NCBI GenBank assembly: GCA_035517015.1
Contig: DATIZQ010000008.1
Coordinates: forward strand, 4,440-68,439
DNA from: Candidatus Acidiferrum sp.
GTDB lineage: Bacteria > Acidobacteriota > Terriglobia > Acidiferrales > UBA7541
Direction: 5' to 3'
Length of the DNA stretch: 64,000 nucleotides
Part shown: positions 2,261 to 63,688 of the stretch, in pieces
Layout: every line of letters starts with the position of its first letter
Position numbering within the stretch: position 1 is the first letter of the stretch
Notes under the pieces: generated by a model
Databases searched by the model: none
The model's input: the letters and a program-made list of their open reading frames with translations, nothing else
Told to the model about the DNA's origin: nothing
Position numbers and translations under genes: made by a program

Positions 2261-2560
2261 ATGATCAGTAACGCACAAATCGGCGGAGAGTTGGACAGTA
2301 CAGACACGCCCCGGGCGCCTTCAGGTGAAGCGCGGTGCTTCGCGGTACGGCACTATTCGGTTCCTGAAGTTGCATCTCTCTGGAAGCTAAGCGACGATGC
2401 CGTGAGAAAGATTTTCGCGAAGGAGCCAGGCGTGCTGGTACTGACAAACGAGGGCGGCAAGTACAAAAAGCGGCGGTACACGACGTTGAGGATTCCGGAG
2501 TTCGTTCTGGAACGTGTTCACAGAAGATTGACACGGGGTGTAGACTCGGCGCCATGCTGA
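2261..2560 (+). CDS. Small helix-turn-helix DNA-binding protein, excisionase/AlpA-like
   Basis: The ORF spans 2066-2560. I chose the ATG at 2261 because it lies after the upstream stop (2157). The segment YSVPEVASLWKLSDDAVRKIF resembles an excisionase-type HTH. The 3' end overlaps the integrase start by 7 nt. Confidence 0.5.
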   Translation: MISNAQIGGELDSTDTPRAPSGEARCFAVRHYSVPEVASLWKLSDDAVRKIFAKEPGVLVLTNEGGKYKKRRYTTLRIPEFVLERVHRRLTRGVDSAPC

Positions 2561-3717
2561 CCATCTACCGCAGACATAAGAGGAATTGCGAGCACCAGGG
2601 GGAAGGCCGGAAATATCGGCGGTGTCGCTGCCCAATTTGGGTTGACGGCTTTGTAGGAGGTAAGGAAGTCCGTAAATCGATCGACATCACGGATTGGGGG
2701 AAAGCACAAGATAAGGTGCGGCAGTGGGAGTCACAAGAGAGTGAACCGACGCCCGTACTCGAACCGATCACCATTCAAGTGGCCAGCGAACGATTCCTTA
2801 TGAACGCAGCGACACAGAAGCTAAACGAATCCACAATATACAAGTACCGGCTGTTGTTCAAACAAATCGGCGACTTCTCGCAGAAGCGCGGCCTGCGCTA
2901 CGTCAAAGAATTGGACCTGGTGACACTTGACGATTTCCGAGCGGGATGGAAAGACGGAGCGCGTTCAAGCGCGAAGAAACTAGAAAGGCTTCGCGCATTC
3001 TTCCGTTTCGCCCAAGAGCGGGAGTGGATCACAAAAAATCCGGCTGCGGGCCTCAGGGCTCCTAAGGTGACACTGTGTCCGACAATGCCCTACACAGGCG
3101 AAGAGATGCTGAGGATTCTCGCGGCAATAGACAAATACAGAGACGCGTTCCCCGCTCGCGGCAGAGAGAACGCGCTACGACTTCGCGGGCTCGTGTTGTT
3201 GCTGCGGTACAGTGGAATGCGAATCGGAGACGCAGTCAGCCTTTCGGCGGATCGAATTGAGGGTGACCGGCTTTTCCTTTATACGCAAAAGACAGGCGTG
3301 GCAGTAAATACCGTGTTGCCGAACTTTGTGGTAAAAACCCTAGAGGCAATCCCCAAAGTCAAGGACAGGCATTTCTTCTGGAATGGCATGGGCAAGCTCG
3401 AGACCATCGTTGGGAGTTGGCGCAGGCGGCTGGCGAAGCTCTTCGAACTCGCAGGAGTATCAAAGGGCCATGCGCACCGATTCCGTGACACCTTCGCCGT
3501 GGAACTTCTCCTCAGTGGCGTGCTGATCGAGCGAGTGTCTGTGCTTCTCGGGCACCAAAGCGTGCGCATCACAGAAAAGCATTACTCACCGTGGGTGCGA
3601 GCGCGCCAGGAACAGCTTGAAGCCGATTTGCGGCGCTCATGGGAGCTCGATCCGGTCTCACTCATGGAGGCGAAGGGTACACCTGGGGTACACGAGAAAA
3701 ACGAGAGGATTAACTAA
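2554..3717 (+). CDS. Tyrosine site-specific recombinase (phage-type integrase)
   Basis: 387 aa. The C-terminal catalytic signature is RYSGMRIGD ... HRFRDTFAVELL ... LLGHQSVRITEKHY (R..HxxR..Y). The gene ends 22 nt from the 3' end of tRNA-Cys. Confidence 0.9.
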   Translation: MLTIYRRHKRNCEHQGEGRKYRRCRCPIWVDGFVGGKEVRKSIDITDWGKAQDKVRQWESQESEPTPVLEPITIQVASERFLMNAATQKLNESTIYKYRLLFKQIGDFSQKRGLRYVKELDLVTLDDFRAGWKDGARSSAKKLERLRAFFRFAQEREWITKNPAAGLRAPKVTLCPTMPYTGEEMLRILAAIDKYRDAFPARGRENALRLRGLVLLLRYSGMRIGDAVSLSADRIEGDRLFLYTQKTGVAVNTVLPNFVVKTLEAIPKVKDRHFFWNGMGKLETIVGSWRRRLAKLFELAGVSKGHAHRFRDTFAVELLLSGVLIERVSVLLGHQSVRITEKHYSPWVRARQEQLEADLRRSWELDPVSLMEAKGTPGVHEKNERIN

Positions 3718-5834: not shown

Positions 5835-6797
5835 ATGAAACGCGCCTGGCTTGAACAATTGATGAAGGTCAACAAGGAACTGCTGTTGATCCTGTCGATC
5901 ATCGCCTTCGCCGCGATCGTGAATTTCTTTGTCGCCGGGCAGAAGCTGGTTCTCTCCTTCTACGATCTGCCGACTCTGTTCGCGGCGTACTACTTCGGCC
6001 GTTCGCGCGCCGTTCAGACAGCGCTCGCGTCGGTTCTGATCGTTTCTTGGCTGAACCTTATGAACCCCGTAGCGCTGGCCAGCGGGGCTAACGTTTCCCT
6101 GCGTCACATGATGGCGTGGTCGGACATCGCGATCTGGGGCGGATTCCTCCTGATTACCGCGTACGCAATGGGCTCGCTCTACGAGCGCAAGGAACAGAGC
6201 CTGGCTGAGCTTCGGGAGACGTACTACGGCGTGTTGCAGATCCTGTGCGGGGTGGTCTCAAACGACAAATACACGCAAAATCATTCCTACCGCACGTCTG
6301 TCTACGCGGCCCGTCTCGCCGAGGAAATGCGGCTGCCCGAGCAAAGGATCGAGGATATTCGCGCCGCTGCTCTGCTCCACGATATCGGCAAACTCGAGGT
6401 GAGCCGCCAGATTCTCTACAAGGCTGCACGTCTTAGCGACGAAGAGATCGTCGAGATGCAATCCCATTTGAACAAGGGCATGGACACGCTGAGGCCCGTC
6501 GGCGGAACGCTTCGCCGCGTGCTGCCTATCATCCTGAGCCACCACGACAAATTCGATGGCACGGGCTATCACCCTACGAAAGGCGATGACATCCCGCTCG
6601 AAGCCCGCATCATCAGCGTCGCGGACGCGTATGACGCGATGGTCAGCGACCGCCCATACCGCAAAGCGATCACGCCGTTCGAAGCGCGCGACATTCTTGT
6701 AAAGGGCGCCGGCAAGGATTGGGATCCAACGGTTGTCGATGCCTTCCAATCTGTCTTCCGAGCCGGCCGCATGGAAGTCCCCGAAGTCCTCGTGTAG
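5835..6797 (+). CDS. Membrane-anchored HD-GYP domain phosphohydrolase (probable c-di-GMP phosphodiesterase)
   Basis: Several N-terminal TM helices are followed by AALLHDIGK and HHDKFDGTGYHP (HD-GYP signature). The ATG at 5835 is preferred over the TTG at 5811. Confidence 0.8.
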   Translation: MKRAWLEQLMKVNKELLLILSIIAFAAIVNFFVAGQKLVLSFYDLPTLFAAYYFGRSRAVQTALASVLIVSWLNLMNPVALASGANVSLRHMMAWSDIAIWGGFLLITAYAMGSLYERKEQSLAELRETYYGVLQILCGVVSNDKYTQNHSYRTSVYAARLAEEMRLPEQRIEDIRAAALLHDIGKLEVSRQILYKAARLSDEEIVEMQSHLNKGMDTLRPVGGTLRRVLPIILSHHDKFDGTGYHPTKGDDIPLEARIISVADAYDAMVSDRPYRKAITPFEARDILVKGAGKDWDPTVVDAFQSVFRAGRMEVPEVLV

Positions 6798-6856: not shown

Positions 6857-8533
6857 TCAGGCGGGAGTCGGCTTGGCGAACATTTGGCCGACCGCTTCGC
6901 GAAGCCGCGCGAGGGTGAACGGTTTGGGCAGAATCGGAACAGCCGCCAGTTCGGCCCCGTGCTGCTCCGCGTCGGCGAGGTTTCCGGTCATGAGCAGGAA
7001 ACGCGCCGCGAGTCCCGGGCGGATCGTTCTCACAAGGCGGTAGATGTCGAGGCCGCTCTGACCGGGCATCTTCAAATCACAAATTACAACGTCGAATTGT
7101 TCCTCCTGCAGAACAGCCTCAGCACGCTTTGGGCTGGACAGCAAGGTGACCCGGTAGCCAAAGCTCTCGAGCGCGTCGCCAACCATTTCGAGGAGTCCTT
7201 CTTCGTCGTCAATCACGAGCACGTGCCGCGCTGCGGAGGCTGCCGGACTTCCGGACGAAGTACTGTCTGAAGGCGCGGCCGACGCTTGGCGTGGTGGTGG
7301 TGACATCGGGAGTTCGATGTGCATCGTGACGCCTTCGCCGTCTGGAGCCTCCGCAAAGATGCGCCCATGGTGCTGCTGAATGATGCCGTGCGAAATGCTC
7401 AGCCCCAACCCGGTTCCCTGCCCTTGCGGCCGCGTGGTAAAAAACGGCTCGAAGATATGCTCGCGTATTTCAGCTGACATTCCCGGGCCGTTGTCTCGCA
7501 GCGTGAGATGCGCTCTCTGGCCATCCGTTCGGCAGTCGACCCAGATGTCTCCGCGATCGCGACAACCGCGGATGGCATCTTCCGAATTGAGCAGCAAGTT
7601 CAGCAGAACCTGCAGAAGCTGGTCGGGATCGGCAAGAACCCAGACGGGATTCGAAGGCTTCGTGATGTGAAGCTCAATGTTGTCTGCGCGGAGATGATAC
7701 TCGCGGAGGGCGACGAGACGGTCGACAACCCCGCGCAAATCGAGCCCCTGCGTCCGGTGCGGCGCGCGGCGCGCAAAGCTGCTCAGGTTCGCGACAACGT
7801 TCTTCAACCGCAGGGCTTCTTCCCGAATCGTGTGAACCGGCGTCGCGACGGACCGGTCGCCGCCGCGTTGGCTCAGGACGATCTCGCTGAAGCCGAGGAT
7901 CGATGTAAGTGGATTATTGATCTCGTGCGCAACGCCGGAGACAAGCTGACCGAGAGAAGCGAGTTTGGCAGATTGTAGTAACTCTTTCTGCGCGAGTTCG
8001 AGTTTGGCGGTTCGTTCGACGACCTTCCGTTCGAGGGAGGCGCGCGTTTTACGCAGCTCGGCCGCCATTTCGAGGAATCCGGTCACCAAAGAACTAAGCT
8101 CGATGCTTTCAGGGACCTCTGCGGTGATATTCAGGTTGCCGCGGCGAACTTCGGAGACCATTTGGCGCATCTTGTCGAGGTGCTGCCAGATATGCCTTTG
8201 ATGGGCGCGCCGAAACCATATCGACGCGAAGAAAGAAAACAGCGCAAAAGCAATCAGCACGATCAACAGCTGCCGCGACGACTCGCGCATTTGTTCGTTT
8301 AGCGCCTGGAGGCGCTGCACCTCGGGACCCGACACGTGGAGCGTTTGCAACGAGGTAGCCAGGCGGCTTTGATAGGCGTCCCGCACATAGAGCGCCGTCG
8401 ACACGAGCAGAATTGCCAGGAACAGCGTGCCTGCTTGCATCAGGCGAAAGCGACGCTCGATGGAATACGGCTTGGGCTTGGCCGAGATCACGGCAGCCCG
8501 CACCTTGCTCTGCGCTTCGGTTGGCACACTCAT
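6857..8533 (-). CDS. Hybrid sensor histidine kinase / response regulator
   Basis: TM + HAMP-like region, H-box SGVAHEINNPLT, HATPase blocks (DNGPGM, GTGLGLS) and a C-terminal receiver (VLVIDDE ... DLKMPG). Confidence 0.85.
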   Translation of the reverse strand: MSVPTEAQSKVRAAVISAKPKPYSIERRFRLMQAGTLFLAILLVSTALYVRDAYQSRLATSLQTLHVSGPEVQRLQALNEQMRESSRQLLIVLIAFALFSFFASIWFRRAHQRHIWQHLDKMRQMVSEVRRGNLNITAEVPESIELSSLVTGFLEMAAELRKTRASLERKVVERTAKLELAQKELLQSAKLASLGQLVSGVAHEINNPLTSILGFSEIVLSQRGGDRSVATPVHTIREEALRLKNVVANLSSFARRAPHRTQGLDLRGVVDRLVALREYHLRADNIELHITKPSNPVWVLADPDQLLQVLLNLLLNSEDAIRGCRDRGDIWVDCRTDGQRAHLTLRDNGPGMSAEIREHIFEPFFTTRPQGQGTGLGLSISHGIIQQHHGRIFAEAPDGEGVTMHIELPMSPPPRQASAAPSDSTSSGSPAASAARHVLVIDDEEGLLEMVGDALESFGYRVTLLSSPKRAEAVLQEEQFDVVICDLKMPGQSGLDIYRLVRTIRPGLAARFLLMTGNLADAEQHGAELAAVPILPKPFTLARLREAVGQMFAKPTPA

Positions 8534-58453: not shown

Positions 58454-58605
58454 TTCTTCGGTTTTGACTCACTCCGGAAAACGCCTTTGTACCGCTGGCG
58501 TCCCGCCGGCTCAATCTCCCGCTTGGCCTCTTGAGCGCCGGAGGCGCGATTGTACTTAGCCCGGCACGCAGCGCAGCGGAGTGCCGACTCATCGTTCCTG
58601 CCTTG

Positions 58606-58701
58606 CTTTGGGGTGGGAGCCCCCGACTTCAGTCGGGGGAGCACGACCGCTTTTCGGTCGTGCGAAAGAAGCCCCAAAACTCGCAGGGGCTTTAGCCCCG
58701 G
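58606..58701 (+). repeat. REP-like three-hairpin element, copy R1
   Basis: TTTGGGGTGGGAGCC + hairpin CCCCCGAC-TTCA-GTCGGGGG + GAGCA + hairpin CGACCG..CGGTCG + GCGAAAGAAGCC + hairpin GGGGC-TTTA-GCCCC. Confidence 0.8.
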
Positions 58702-58854: not shown

Positions 58855-59970
58855 TTGCCCTTGCCCAAAACCGCTCCAATCTCACACGCTTCCCCCTCCG
58901 ACGCCGCTTCCTCCCCGCCTCTCCCCGCTCCCGTTTTTCACGACGCCGCGCACCACATCAAAATCTATCAGGGCGACTGCCTCGAAATCCTCGCCGCCAT
59001 TCCCGAAGCCTCCGTCGACCTCATTTTCGCCGACCCGCCCTACTTCCTCTCGAACAATGGCATCACCTGCCACGCCGGGCGCATGGTCAGCGTCGACAAG
59101 GGCGATTGGGACAAATCGCGCGGCGCTGACGCGAATCATCAGTTCAACCGCGACTGGCTCGCTGCCTGCCAGCGCGTCCTGCAGCCGAACGGCACCATCT
59201 GGGTCAGCGGGACCAGCCACGTCATCCATTCCGTCGGCTTCGCCATGCAGCAGCTCGGCTTCAAGCTGCTCAACGACATTTCCTGGGTCAAGCCCAATCC
59301 GCCGCCCAATCTTTCTTGCCGCTACTTCACCCACGCCACCGAAACCATCATCTGGGCCGCCAAGAACTCGAAGAGCCGCCACACCTTCAATTACAAGCAC
59401 ATGAAGCAGCTCGCCGGCGGCAAGCAGATGAAAAGCGTCTGGACCATTCCGCCTCCCGAGCCTTGGCAGAAGAAATTCGGCAAGCATCCCACGCAAAAGC
59501 CCGTCGCCCTCCTCGAACGCATCCTCCTCGCCGCCTCCGCCGAAGGCGACCTCGTCCTCGACCCCTTCTCCGGCTCCGGCACGACGCTCGTCGCCGCGCT
59601 TCGCCTCTCTCGCCGCGCGCTCGCCGCCGAATTCGACGCGACCTGGATTCAGTTGGCCCTCGTTCGAGTGTGTTCCGATCTGGTACAGGTGCGGATTTTC
59701 GCTGCCTGCCTTCACTTCGATCTTGATCCCGACCGCGACCCTGTGGATCGATCCAGATCGCCCGTGCCCGACGCTCCGCCAACTCGCCTCGTTCGCCGCG
59801 ACCGCAACTTTCATTTCGTCGGCGCATCGCAGCGCGACGTTGTCTTCTCGGTCACCGCCGACGACCTGAGCGACGCATGGACGAGATTCCATTCCAGCGC
59901 CACATCGAAAACAGAGATTCTCTTCGTCATCAAGACCGAAACCGAGATTTATCTCGCGCAGGGAAAATGA
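58855..59970 (+). CDS. Beta-class N6-adenine (N4/N6 amino) DNA methyltransferase, DpnA/M.DpnIIB-like, with a C-terminal extension of about 105 aa
   Basis: Motif IV IFADPPYF (DPPY at 59032-59043) precedes motif I LDPFSGSGTT. Blocks VSVDKGDWDK, NLSCRYFTHATETIIWA and GKHPTQKP are present. The first in-frame start is TTG and there is no ATG in the first about 80 codons. Confidence 0.85.
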   Translation: MPLPKTAPISHASPSDAASSPPLPAPVFHDAAHHIKIYQGDCLEILAAIPEASVDLIFADPPYFLSNNGITCHAGRMVSVDKGDWDKSRGADANHQFNRDWLAACQRVLQPNGTIWVSGTSHVIHSVGFAMQQLGFKLLNDISWVKPNPPPNLSCRYFTHATETIIWAAKNSKSRHTFNYKHMKQLAGGKQMKSVWTIPPPEPWQKKFGKHPTQKPVALLERILLAASAEGDLVLDPFSGSGTTLVAALRLSRRALAAEFDATWIQLALVRVCSDLVQVRIFAACLHFDLDPDRDPVDRSRSPVPDAPPTRLVRRDRNFHFVGASQRDVVFSVTADDLSDAWTRFHSSATSKTEILFVIKTETEIYLAQGK

Positions 59971-59982
59971 TCTAATGCGGCG

Positions 59983-60753
59983 GTGCAACTTGCCCTTCCG
60001 ACCAAAGGCCTCGCCGCATATACGAGCGCATCCCAACGGGCGCGTGTCGCCACAGAGGCATGGGGCCTCGAAAATCTCTACTGCGCGAACTGCAGCTCGC
60101 GCGCGCTGAATCCATCGCCCCCGAACACGCCGGCAATCGATTTCGAGTGCCCGAAGTGCCGCATCCGCTTCCAGCTCAAATCGCAGTCGCACGGGTTCGG
60201 CGAGCGAATCCTCGACTCCGCCTACAACAAGATGGTTCGCGAAATTAAAGAGAACCGCACGCCGAACCTCTTTGCCCTGCACTACGAACTCGATTCATGG
60301 AGAGTGGCGAACCTGCTCCTGATTCCGAGCTTCGCCTTCCCCCTCTCAGCCATCGAGAAAAGGAAGCCCTTGGCGCCGACCGCGCGGCGTGCAGGCTGGG
60401 TGGGTTGCAACATCCTCCTTGGTGCGATTCCGGGAGATGCCCGAATCCCGCTCGTCATCGATGGCGTTCCGTCTCCCGCGAAACAGGTGCGCGAACTGTA
60501 CGCCCGAGTGCGTCCGCTGAAGGCGCTCGGAGCCGAACAGCGCGGATGGACTCTCGATGTGTTGAATGCGGTTCGTTCCCTCGAAAAGACGGAATTCTCG
60601 CTGGCCGACGCTTACGAACTCGAGGACGGGCTGTCGGCCCTCCACCCGGACAACCGCCACGTCCGCGACAAGATCCGCCAGCAGCTTCAGATTCTCCGCG
60701 ACATGGGCTTGCTGCAATTCCTCGGCGGAGGCGCGTACAGACTCAGGCGCTAG
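59983..60753 (+). CDS. DpnI-family (Dam-replacing protein family) PD-(D/E)XK endonuclease homolog with a C-terminal winged helix
   Basis: 256 aa with a GTG start 12 nt after the MTase stop. As I recall it, the protein is colinear with R.DpnI: Cys4 (CANC...CPKC), D53, K66, RKPLAPTARRAGWVGCNI and KIRQQLQILRD. Position 64 is Gln, not Glu. Confidence 0.8.
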   Translation: MQLALPTKGLAAYTSASQRARVATEAWGLENLYCANCSSRALNPSPPNTPAIDFECPKCRIRFQLKSQSHGFGERILDSAYNKMVREIKENRTPNLFALHYELDSWRVANLLLIPSFAFPLSAIEKRKPLAPTARRAGWVGCNILLGAIPGDARIPLVIDGVPSPAKQVRELYARVRPLKALGAEQRGWTLDVLNAVRSLEKTEFSLADAYELEDGLSALHPDNRHVRDKIRQQLQILRDMGLLQFLGGGAYRLRR

Positions 60754-60766
60754 CGAAGGTCTTAGG

Positions 60767-60860
60767 TTTGGGGTGGAAGCCCCGGACCTTCAGTCCGGGG
60801 AGCATCGCGCCTTTTGCGATGCGAAAGAAGCCTCAAAATTAAATTGGGCTTTAGCCCTGG
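60767..60860 (+). repeat. REP-like three-hairpin element, copy R2 (3' flank of RAYT)
   Basis: TTTGGGGTGGAAGCC + CCCCGGAC-CTTCA-GTCCGGGG + AGCATCGC..GCGATGC + GCGAAAGAAGCC + GGGC-TTTA-GCCC. The last hairpin loop contains the RAYT stop codon. Confidence 0.8.
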
Positions 60861-61327
60861 GTCGTCCGCTCAAACCATGCCGGCCGCGCATCAACCTCAG
60901 CTCCCGGGGTCGCCGACGAATATGGATATTTCTCCGCTCGATCGACAAGAAACCTCGCGACGGGATTCTCCCAAATGTACTTGCGATGGCTTTCGTAGTC
61001 TCGAGCGTCCTTGATTCGACGCTCACCGAAGCCCGCCTGCCAGATCTCCGTTTTCACTCCGAATTCCTTGCCTGCGCGAAACGAAAATCCGCCTTTGATG
61101 TATTGAACGGCTTTTTCCACCGGAACGTTTTCTGCGGGTGTCACGAGCACGTGAAAATGGTCCGGCATCACCACGAACTCGTGCAGCAGGAATCGCCCTT
61201 TCTTCCTGTTGTCCTGCAACACATCCAGGAAGAGTCGCGCCATCCTCTCCGTTTGAAAAACTCGACGCCGATCCTTCGCTGTCGAAGTGATGAAGAACGT
61301 GCGAATTTCTTGAGGAGCGTGCGCCAT
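60851..61327 (-). CDS. REP-associated tyrosine transposase (RAYT; IS200/IS605 Y1 TnpA-like)
   Basis: HUH motif MPDHFHVLV and catalytic Tyr motif RKYIWENPV. 159 aa from ATG 61327. REP elements flank it in inverted orientation. Confidence 0.85.
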   Translation of the reverse strand: MAHAPQEIRTFFITSTAKDRRRVFQTERMARLFLDVLQDNRKKGRFLLHEFVVMPDHFHVLVTPAENVPVEKAVQYIKGGFSFRAGKEFGVKTEIWQAGFGERRIKDARDYESHRKYIWENPVARFLVDRAEKYPYSSATPGAEVDARPAWFERTTQG

Positions 61328-61334
61328 TAGAATT

Positions 61335-61407
61335 CCCGGGGCTAAAGCCCGCCGTATCCTAACGAACTTTTCCCGGGCCTGAAAGGCCCGGGCTTCCACC
61401 CTAAAAC
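61335..61407 (-). repeat. REP-like element in inverted orientation (5' flank of RAYT)
   Basis: The reverse complement reads TTTTAGGGTGGAAGCC + CGGGCC-TTTCA-GGCCCG ... GGGC-TTTA-GCCCC. It lacks the middle hairpin. Confidence 0.75.
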
Positions 61408-61470
61408 CCACGCCACACCCCAAAACCCCACGCGCCCCGTCGAAGCTCTCAAGTTCGGGTGGCTGTTAGC

Positions 61471-61566
61471 TTTTAGGGTGGAAGCCCTGCGCTTTAGCGC
61501 AGGGAGCATCGCGCCTTGTGCGATGCGAAAGAAGCCCGCCCCCAAAAATTGGGCTTCAGCCCCGGG
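61471..61566 (+). repeat. REP-like three-hairpin element, copy R3
   Basis: TTTTAGGGTGGAAGCC + CCTGCGC-TTTA-GCGCAGG + GAGCATCGC..GCGATGC + GCGAAAGAAGCC + GGGC-TTCA-GCCC. Confidence 0.8.
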
Positions 61567-63085: not shown

Positions 63086-63127
63086 CAGTTCGCGTGATGA
63101 TTACAGGAGGTCGGGGCTTGTGATCGC

Positions 63128-63244
63128 TCTTGGGTGGGAGCCCCCCACTTCAGTGGGGGGAGCACGGCCGATTCTTGGCCGTGCGAAACACGCAGTCGGC
63201 GCGCAGCGCCTACCTCAGTCGAGCCTCTCCCGGCGCGCAGCGCC
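63128..63244 (+). repeat. Long REP variant, copy R4
   Basis: GGGTGGGAGCC + CCCCCAC-TTCA-GTGGGGG + GAGCACGGCC-GATTCTT-GGCCGTGC + GAAACACGCAGTCGGCGCGCAGCGCC...CGGCGCGCAGCGCC. Confidence 0.8.
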
Positions 63245-63297
63245 TTGCCTCCCGCTTGGCCCTCCGAATAGCTTCCGGCTCGCTTTGCCTTTATCGC

Positions 63298-63414
63298 CTT
63301 TGGGTGGGAGCCCCCCACTTCGGTGGGGGGAGCACGGCCGATTCTTGGCCGTGCGAAACACGCAGTCGGCGTGCAGCGCCTACCTTAGTCGGGCTTCTCC
63401 CGGCGCGCAGCGCC
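63298..63414 (+). repeat. Long REP variant, copy R5
   Basis: Near-identical to R4 with a few substitutions. It is preceded by the shared leader GCTTGGCCCTCCGAATAGCTTCCGGCTCGCTTTGCC (63254-63289). Confidence 0.8.
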
Positions 63415-63566
63415 CACTTTGCTGCCGTTTATCCTGAGCGGAGTCGAAGGGCAGGCCGTCGCGCAGGACGCAAGTCCGGAGCCACGCGCGCTGGCCCTCG
63501 GAAGAACCTTCCCTCGCGCTTGGCCCTCCAAATAGCTTCCGGCTCGCCTTGCCTTACTGTGGTCGC

Positions 63567-63688
63567 CTTTGGGTGGGAGCCCCCCACTTCAGTGGGGGGG
63601 GGGGAGCACGGCCGATTCTTGGCCGTGCGAAACAAGCAGTCGGCGCGCAGCGCCTACCTTAGTCGAGCTTCTCCCGGCGCGCAGCGCC
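63567..63688 (+). repeat. Long REP variant, copy R6 (with a G-tract expansion)
   Basis: Same unit as R4/R5 and the same leader (63520-63555). Its G-run at 63594-63604 is 11 G, against 6 G in R4/R5. Confidence 0.8.

Follow-up and report, generated by a model that had tools for sequence, protein, structure and literature searches.

Does a DpnI-type nuclease whose catalytic glutamate has become a glutamine still cut DNA and, if it does, how does its host survive a neighbouring gene that appears to write the very mark at which it would cut? Both questions are raised by two adjacent genes in a 64,000-nucleotide stretch of Candidatus Acidiferrum sp. (Acidobacteriota; assembly GCA_035517015.1, contig DATIZQ010000008.1, positions 4,440 to 68,439; hereafter the window): one for a predicted adenine methylase of the DpnA type and one for a DpnI-family nuclease with Gln at position 64, which we call Q-type to set it apart from the E-type enzymes that, like R.DpnI, have Glu there (Table 1). 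On balance we lean, though only slightly, toward the view that the nuclease, a PD-QxK variant of DpnI, is catalytically competent, reads GATC with N6-methylated adenine (Gm6ATC) and resides with the methylase in a mobile two-gene cassette, its activity being judged from sequence comparison. The issue reaches beyond this locus, as DpnI is in routine laboratory use and serves as the model of adenine-methylation-dependent restriction, and roughly half of its nearest sequence relatives that were sampled carry Gln at a residue essential in DpnI.

Glutamine 64 in the DpnI family

The nuclease is matched over their full lengths by the Pfam models DpnI (PF06044, 177.2 bits, cut-off 26.7) and DpnI_C (PF17726, 90.2 bits, cut-off 23). 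It is also matched by the R.DpnI structures (PDB 4esj/4kyw, E=1.4e-58) and, at positions 1-255 of its 256 residues, by the PADLOC model mREase_II (1.8e-65). Its AlphaFold model (predicted local distance difference test, pLDDT, 97.5) superposes on 4esj with a Foldseek TM-score of 0.86-0.91 and a root mean square deviation of 2.3 A over 255 columns; both Pfam domains and, in the model, the DpnI fold are therefore present. Because the alignment to R.DpnI is gapless across the active site (from residue 10 to about 116, the PDB chain having 3 extra N-terminal residues), window numbering and DpnI numbering coincide there. The initial annotation of this DNA, which was made from the letters alone, had assigned D53 (GAT), Q64 (CAG) and K66 (AAA), and both the codons and the alignment (IDFECPKCRIRFQLKS in the window nuclease, ADFYCNHCSEEFELKS in R.DpnI) agree with it; that CAG is a single base away from GAG and that the four Zn cysteines, C34, C37, C56 and C59, are all retained can likewise be read directly from the sequence.

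Hence the nuclease has E25, D53 and K66 of the canonical catalytic set E25/D53/E64/K66, and Gln at position 64. In R.DpnI the variants D53A, E64A and K66A have essentially lost activity and E25 is the glutamate of the upstream helix (PMC3424567), while metal site 1 is ligated by D53, the carbonyl of L65 and the side chain of E64, with K66 placing the water for attack (PMC4117772). Judged by its sequence, the window nuclease is a full-length member of the DpnI family with a non-canonical active-site residue that is nevertheless shared by a whole subfamily.

The extent of this sharing is considerable. The pattern D..C..C...[FYW]Q[L]K was found in 119 of the 120 closest database homologues, and a MAFFT alignment of the window nuclease with its 120 closest cluster representatives (64-100% identity) has Gln at column 64 in 121/121 sequences. 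Invariant columns number 59 of 256 in this alignment, and they include E25, D53, Q64, L65 and K66, nearly all of the residues that contact Gm6ATC and three of the four Zn cysteines, the fourth being kept in 120/121. When 1.84 billion cluster representatives were searched exhaustively with HMMER, 2133 relatives came up, and among the best 150 of these, which were clustered at 50% identity and reach down to about 35% identity, column 64 holds Q in 75, E in 59 and N, K and P in one each, the remainder being fragments. Gln is thus the majority state among these diverged representatives with Q or E (75/134 versus 59/134), and neither D53 nor K66 varies in the groups with either residue, while E25 hardly does. 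The two states are structured by clade, with about seven switches on a rough neighbour-joining tree; a single ancient split between Q and E was accordingly rejected, the tree being too crude for more than that. Since Gln is common to so many diverged relatives, the departure at position 64 defines a subfamily and does not exclude membership. These results show Gln64 to be an old, selected and conserved hallmark, not a sign of decay, of a large Q-type branch, and that branch is a previously uncharacterised part of the DpnI family. Phage and plasmid collections held no Q-type relatives, and the sole matches in the plasmid collection were Neisseria gonorrhoeae chromosomes filed as plasmids.

Does anything else in the protein change together with position 64? 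Residue 87 does, its mutual information with position 64 (0.71) being the highest of all columns besides 64 itself. In the diverged representatives Glu64 is accompanied at this column by Arg or Lys, and Gln64 by Ala or Ser, E-type loci from metagenomes combine E64 with R87 in 80/80, and the 121 close homologues, all Q-type, have A in 89, K in 19 and E in 10. In the structural model, helix 81-89, which bears this residue, directly follows the strand with Q64 and K66. The exchange of E64+R87 for Q64+A87 leaves the net charge unchanged and is charge-compensating; if Q-type enzymes are active, the two pairs form a compact case of active-site co-evolution. The window nuclease itself has Glu87, and we considered whether this could be a 'migrated' catalytic acid of the kind known from the PD-XXK-E arrangement of Cfr10I (PMC3424549). 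With Glu in 10/121 close homologues and Ala in most, it cannot be a general compensation, although such a role is possible within the sub-clade of the window nuclease. No other conserved acid specific to Q-type proteins emerged, position 152 being D or E in about 60% only.

Position 64 aside, the machinery for reading Gm6ATC appears complete. In DpnI a loop of the catalytic domain provides the pocket for the m6A methyl groups and contacts to guanine (PMC4117772), and the readers of this domain (S17, Q18, N48, D78, R126, L129, R135, W138 and G140 in DpnI numbering) are all found in the window nuclease, as are those of the winged helix (K229, R231, Q232 and Q235), where K, R, Q and Q are conserved in 120-121/121 close homologues. 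Conservation of the Gm6ATC-reading residues is equal in Q-type and E-type proteins. We infer that the window nuclease binds fully methylated GATC in both of its domains, and the retention of these residues argues against a switch to unmethylated DNA.

The initial annotation had proposed that Gln64 might abolish or weaken cleavage, or turn the enzyme into a nickase or a pure binder of methylated DNA. A disabling change of this kind is not supported, in view of the invariance of Gln64 together with E25, D53, L65 and K66, of its frequency among diverged relatives and of the covariation at residue 87. A working precedent also exists: the active motif of the Mrr/MspJI group is D...(Q/E)xK, and in MspJI, which has the Gln form and is active, Q355A abolishes activity (PMC2938202). 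The D...QxK motif with an invariant Gln is present in the window nuclease, where the resemblance is one of motif and working mode and not of homology. By analogy with those enzymes, the Q-type active site would use a conserved glutamine as second metal ligand in the arrangement D53-X10-Q64-L-K66, with Arg87 of canonical DpnI lost; the metal would be held by D53 together with the amide oxygen of Gln64 and the carbonyl of L65, K66 would activate water, and the protein would be a metal-dependent phosphodiesterase acting at methylated GATC, possibly with an altered metal affinity or rate. Furthermore, about half of the Q-type genes stand without a methylase of the partner's type within 2.5 kb, as would be expected of working methyl-dependent nucleases (rationale in PMC11037411). 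From these sequence patterns, continued catalysis by the Q-type nuclease seems to us more likely than its loss.

The partner methylase and the apparent self-cleavage conflict

The methylase gene ends 12 nt before the nuclease start and has the same orientation, which suggests a shared operon. Its motif order, DPPY followed by DPFSGSGTT, is that of the beta class (Pfam PF01555, 2.9e-56), and both DPPY and FxGxG are invariant across 19 partners; the methylase is intact. A BLASTP alignment with M.LlaDCHIB of pSRQ700 covers 233 aa with a single gap at 55% identity; the M.LlaDCHIB gene lies between those of a Dam-type methylase and the restriction enzyme of LlaDCHI, a DpnII-type GATC system. A search of annotated plasmids gave 52-54% identity to the second methylase of lactococcal (pSRQ700) and staphylococcal plasmids, and identity to the gene adjoining gonococcal drg is 57%. 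Among solved structures the core is best matched by CcrM (PDB 6pbd, 2.4e-59), a GANTC enzyme, and if the methylase had that specificity the paradox would dissolve. This candidate was rejected: the NCBIfam equivalog cut-off for CcrM is missed (249 versus 830 bits), the C-terminal domain does not align, and in the base-reading loops defined by the CcrM-DNA structure (PMC6787082) only 9/31 positions of Loop-2B and 6/15 of Loop-45 are identical to CcrM, whose R44 and P45 are absent. The same loops agree with M.LlaDCHIB at 20/31 and 12/15 positions with no change in length, the tip of Loop-2B differing (TCHAGR versus SNSGGQ). The neighbour was initially called a GATC methylase, and on this evidence the call is probably right: we are fairly confident that the protein is a GATC-specific methylase of the DpnA/M.DpnIIB type.

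The methylase also carries an extension of about 100 aa, consisting of the linker and C-terminal domain of Table 1, which is common to its counterparts in Acidobacteriota and Verrucomicrobiota and absent from M.LlaDCHIB. AlphaFold gives residues 43-101 of the C-terminal fragment a pLDDT >90, and the domain had no match in Pfam and no fold match in the PDB with E<0.4 (best 0.49); a resemblance to small phage inhibitor proteins was weak and not significant. We conclude that the domain is novel. The idea that it is a separate gene was set aside, as most stand-alone calls come from frameshifted long-read contigs; in two short-read contigs, however, both by polA (L172 3207-4327 and L173 3120-4240), the methylase core (252-253 aa) and the C-terminal domain (79-108 aa) are separate open reading frames (ORFs), so that the small domain could perhaps function as an independent protein.

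Is the conflict between the two genes real? The window contains 381 GATC sites in its 64 kb (observed/expected 0.86), and therefore the paradox of coexistence with a GATC methylase that the initial annotation described is a real one if the methylase acts on duplex DNA. A simple way out would be a classical restriction-modification pair, in which the target of the Q-type nuclease is now unmethylated GATC and the host is protected by the methylase. Gene order and spacing do resemble those of an ordinary type II restriction-modification operon, and GATC is mildly under-represented in cassette loci (observed/expected 0.75), but this depletion is weak, solitary Q-type loci are similar (0.88), and taken with the value for the window such avoidance is not decisive. 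More tellingly, the residues that form the pocket for the two methyl groups (L129, R135, W138, G140) and those of the winged helix that read methylation are invariant, and the half of Q-type genes that have no nearby methylase would be lethal unless a methylase were encoded elsewhere in the genome. Given the invariant pocket and the many solitary genes, we consider a classical pair very improbable.

Alternatively, there may be no conflict to resolve, because the methylase has another specificity or acts on single strands only, like pneumococcal DpnA, so that the nuclease has full type IIM activity and the genes are merely fellow travellers. The proven GATC enzyme to which the methylase was compared is only 55% identical, the Loop-2B tip differs, and the extra C-terminal domain could change the choice of substrate; DpnA has been described as a single-strand GATC methylase (PMC4687349), and elsewhere the same methylase and domain gene precedes other genes, namely those for a Nhi/AbiO-like helicase or a DUF4262 protein. 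Yet the agreement with the GATC enzyme extends over Loop-45 and most of Loop-2B without any change in length, and a spacing of 12-18 nt together with co-conservation over two phyla in about 30 genomes points to a functional link. Additionally, E-type DpnI genes have repeatedly truncated the same methylase subtype (the remnant in L127 has the TCHAGR loop), which suggests that its product makes a DpnI substrate. We hold this explanation to be possible but not probable; it overlaps with one of the routes of host escape open to a competent Q-type nuclease, to which we return below.

The company kept by Q-type and E-type genes differs in a way that bears on the conflict. Pooling 72 Q-type and 91 E-type loci (the latter including a metagenome scan seeded with E-type sequences) and counting within 2.5 kb of the nuclease gene, we found a full-length DpnA-type methylase at 31/72 Q-type but only 4/91 E-type loci, counts that are not phylogenetically independent and come from sets with different flank lengths. 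The methylase C-terminal domain is present at 27 Q-type loci and at no E-type locus. Partial methylase matches only were seen at 16 E-type loci, 9 of them N-terminal remnants that abut the DpnI start (tblastn, 43-92 aa), and at these it looks as if the E-type nuclease gene has replaced most of the methylase gene. In L127 a remnant ORF of 79 aa (2247-2486), with the DPPY region and the same TCHAGR loop as the window methylase, precedes the DpnI gene at 2471-3247; the corresponding tblastn matches are in L090, L097, L100, L103, L108, L113, L115 and L131, and only that in L127 was read as an ORF. As regards methylases, the initial suggestion thus holds in so far as intact partners are much more frequent beside them than beside E-type genes, and fails for about half of the Q-type genes. 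Since these have no nearby methylase, Gln64 did not arise to tolerate a methylase partner, although it could be a precondition for having one.

Some E-type loci deserve a description of their own. In a N. gonorrhoeae chromosome filed as a plasmid (L087 4923-7182), leuS is followed first by drg, then by a DpnA-type methylase gene split by a stop into ORFs at 6029-6406 and 6452-6730, and then by a 151-aa ORF; the product of this drg is a DpnI homologue of E-type in which W138 is replaced by H. In L095 (293-3045) and L142 (64-2640) a canonical E-type DpnI gene lies between a Dam-type (D12) methylase gene and a DpnA-type one (59% identical to M.LlaDCHIB), all three ORFs being full-length in L095 and the Dam-type ORF having 188 aa in L142; motif I of the second methylase reads GSS, not GSG. 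These two loci possibly represent a conflict case for the canonical enzyme.

What, then, speaks against a competent Q-type nuclease? Several observations do. Exchange of Glu for Gln at the equivalent position disables other PD-(D/E)XK enzymes, EcoRI E111Q for example. E64 is a direct metal ligand in R.DpnI and its E64A variant is inactive (PMC3424567, PMC4117772). We found no report in the literature of an assayed Q-type DpnI homologue: the family members with reported assays are DpnI, neisserial Drg, FcyTI and Psp4BI, of which DpnI and the gonococcal drg product (L087) carry Glu64 and FcyTI and Psp4BI are about 58% identical to DpnI, so that of the proposition that Gln is common in demonstrably active members the frequency is borne out (75/134) and the demonstrated activity is not, which leaves room for a quantitatively weakened or a nicking enzyme. 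If the methylase fully methylates GATC, an active nuclease would be lethal at the 381 sites of the window. Intact methylases are largely confined to the neighbourhood of Q-type genes and those beside E-type genes are mostly truncated, as would be expected if Q-type enzymes tolerated the mark better. Lastly, the invariance of D53, K66 and E25 could also be compatible with metal-dependent binding or nicking only.

Such considerations define the alternative in which Gln64 cripples hydrolysis and leaves a protein that binds Gm6ATC, nicks DNA or cleaves it very slowly and that forms a writer-reader pair with the methylase on a fully methylated host, with possible roles in regulation, sequestration or strand marking. 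That all Gm6ATC-binding residues are kept, that an intact methylase of DpnA/GATC type shares the operon, that the host is rich in GATC sites, and that intact methylases accompany Q-type genes while E-type genes lie beside remnants or disrupted copies all fit this picture. However, a pure binder would not need E25, D53 and K66 to be invariant over such deep divergence, and with about half of the Q-type genes lacking a methylase within 2.5 kb there is no fixed link between the variant and a writer. The cassettes occupy variable, defence-like island positions, are bracketed by repeats and have no housekeeping context, QxK is active in MspJI (PMC2938202), and canonical E-type genes too are found between apparently full-length Dam- and DpnA-type genes (L095, L142). 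We consider a crippled nuclease rather unlikely, though a serious competitor to the reading that we prefer.

Returning to the catalytically competent variant that we favour, its host might escape most plausibly in one of two ways: through control on the methylase side, by the extra domain, by activity directed at single strands or invaders, or by tight expression; or through a nuclease that is quantitatively attenuated. A more ambitious proposal, which we regard as improbable, is that the Q-type nuclease cooperates with the methylase and its novel C-terminal domain in a 'write-then-read' module for defence or epigenetic control. In one version the methylase would be kept off host duplex DNA and would mark invading or replicating foreign DNA, which the nuclease would then cut, a minimal two-gene analogue of the logic of the Streptomyces Pgl system; in the other the Gln64/Ala87 site would be tuned to tolerate the methylated host and would fire under particular conditions only. 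In both, the switch from E64 to Q64 would be the adaptation by which a methyl-dependent nuclease can live beside the enzyme that writes its target.

Whichever explanation is correct, it is puzzling in terms of self/non-self discrimination that a DpnI-type enzyme should share a conserved operon with an intact methylase of the kind that writes its target, whereas canonical E-type genes adjoin broken methylase copies. Gln by itself would not surprise a specialist; the pairing with a methylase and the dichotomy of E64/R87 and Q64/A87 would. If Q-type enzymes are active, the motif of the family should read D-X10-(E/Q)-X-K, and if they are attenuated or do not cleave, they are readers of Gm6ATC or nickases from nature whose use as tools is evident.

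Neighbourhoods and presumed mobility of the cassette

The methylase-nuclease pair is found in changing surroundings, between ffh and yidD in one relative (67% identity) and by serS in another (80% identity). In a species scan, for which one genome per species was used and the best 80 loci were examined, 69/80 loci were Q-type, and about 31 of these 69 had an adjacent DpnA-type methylase, mostly directly upstream and in the same orientation. The pair recurs with a spacing of 12-18 nt in about 30 species-level genomes of Acidobacteriota and Verrucomicrobiota (46-52% methylase identity in the latter), in varied neighbourhoods. Among loci found through the C-terminal domain, some have the methylase and its domain followed by a gene for a Nhi/AbiO-like helicase or a DUF4262 protein. 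Three loci share an island position between an enoyl-CoA hydratase gene and serS, where the methylase with its C-terminal domain is followed by a Q-type DpnI gene and a DndB/DpdB-like gene (L088 5001-7174), by a Nhi/AbiO-like helicase of 520 aa (L089 4057-6822) or by a DUF4262 protein (L171 3348-5245); this site looks like a variable defence hotspot or island.

In the window the cassette is bracketed by two of the repetitive extragenic palindromic (REP)-like repeats, those at 58584-58701 and 60762-60860, and a gene for a REP-associated tyrosine transposase (RAYT) next to it is itself flanked by such repeats. A homologous RAYT ORF occurs near a DpnI-like gene in 11 loci, the window included. 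Scans for promoters and terminators around the cassette gave nothing above shuffled expectation.

Some genomes hold more than one copy or another partner. One acidobacterial metagenome-assembled genome (MAG) has two copies of the methylase-nuclease cassette on different contigs (L030, L031), and L053 has two Q-type DpnI genes about 5 kb apart (1126-1884 and 7069-7797). In a Methylacidiphilum MAG (L040 199-2186) a Dam-like (D12-class) methylase gene lies directly upstream of a Q-type DpnI gene, and in L041 and L042 as well the Q-type gene adjoins a Dam-like methylase of this class and not the DpnA-type partner.

Table 1. Features of the Q-type nuclease, its partner methylase and their surroundings (window positions)
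Feature	Position	Strand	Remarks
DpnI-family nuclease gene, Q-type, type IIM, predicted Gm6ATC-reading	59983..60753	+	GTG start, 256 aa
Nuclease layout: N-terminal PD-(D/E)XK domain and C-terminal winged helix	59983..60753	+
E25 (GAG), upstream-helix active-site glutamate	60055..60057	+	role PMC3424567; invariant in 121 close homologues
Zn-binding cysteines C34, C37, C56, C59	60082..60159	+	kept in 120-121/121 close homologues; Zn site PMC3424567
D53 (GAT), bridging metal ligand of motif	60139..60141	+	R.DpnI alignment; invariant in every alignment
Q64 (CAG), position of R.DpnI catalytic metal-site-1 Glu64	60172..60174	+	sequence and R.DpnI alignment
K66 (AAA), catalytic lysine	60178..60180	+	R.DpnI alignment; invariant
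Residue 87 (GAA, Glu in window nuclease), strongest covarying column with 64	60241..60243	+	second core helix, residues 81-89
DNA-reading loop R127, L130, R136, W139, G141 (DpnI R126, L129, R135, W138, G140)	60361..60405	+	roles PMC4117772; conserved
Winged-helix recognition helix D229-K230-I-R232-Q233-Q-L-Q236 (DpnI E228, K229, R231, Q232, Q235)	60667..60690	+	roles PMC3424567
Predicted beta-class N6-adenine DNA methyltransferase, DpnA/M.DpnIIB type	58855..59970	+	371 aa as listed; start codon uncertain
Methylase linker, roughly 40 aa, predicted disordered	59656-59781	+	precedes C-terminal domain
Methylase C-terminal domain, about 60 aa, strand-strand-helix-strand	59782..59958	+	no Pfam match
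REP-like palindromic repeats	58584-58701, 60762-60860, 61466-61536, 63105-63688		about 70-120 nt, 69-94% alike
RAYT gene	60851-61423	-	NCBIfam NF047646, 5e-31

Comparison with known systems

The closest known systems are R.DpnI of Streptococcus pneumoniae (type IIM; 4esj, 4kyw) and its relatives Drg, FcyTI and Psp4BI. The window nuclease differs from R.DpnI in having Gln at metal ligand 64, in lacking Arg87 (Glu here, Ala in most Q-type proteins) and in sharing a predicted operon with an intact DpnA-type methylase; DpnI has been reported in a cassette without a methylase. Similarly, neisserial Drg, the product of the dam-replacing gene, is set apart by its neighbour, as gonococcal drg adjoins a disrupted methylase gene and the window nuclease has an intact partner.

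DpnII-type cassettes (S. pneumoniae DpnII; LlaDCHI on pSRQ700) carry a Dam-type and a DpnA-type methylase, and it is the latter that the window methylase resembles in overall identity and in its recognition loops. Unlike these cassettes, the one in the window has no Dam-type gene, its nuclease belongs to the methyl-dependent DpnI family and not to DpnII, and its methylase has the additional C-terminal part. CcrM, the cell-cycle methylase for GANTC, resembles the window methylase in its core and in the presence of a C-terminal extension after a linker, although the window methylase's C-terminal domain is smaller and unrelated in sequence and the recognition loops differ.

As regards the active site, the likeness is to MspJI and Mrr, modification-dependent PD-(D/E)XK nucleases with a natural Gln at the second metal-ligand position, and MspJI too is encoded beside a methylase (PMC2938202). 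There is no detectable homology beyond the superfamily fold, AspBHI being a weak Foldseek match only, and MspJI differs in its sensor domain, in recognising 5-methylcytosine and in cutting at some distance.

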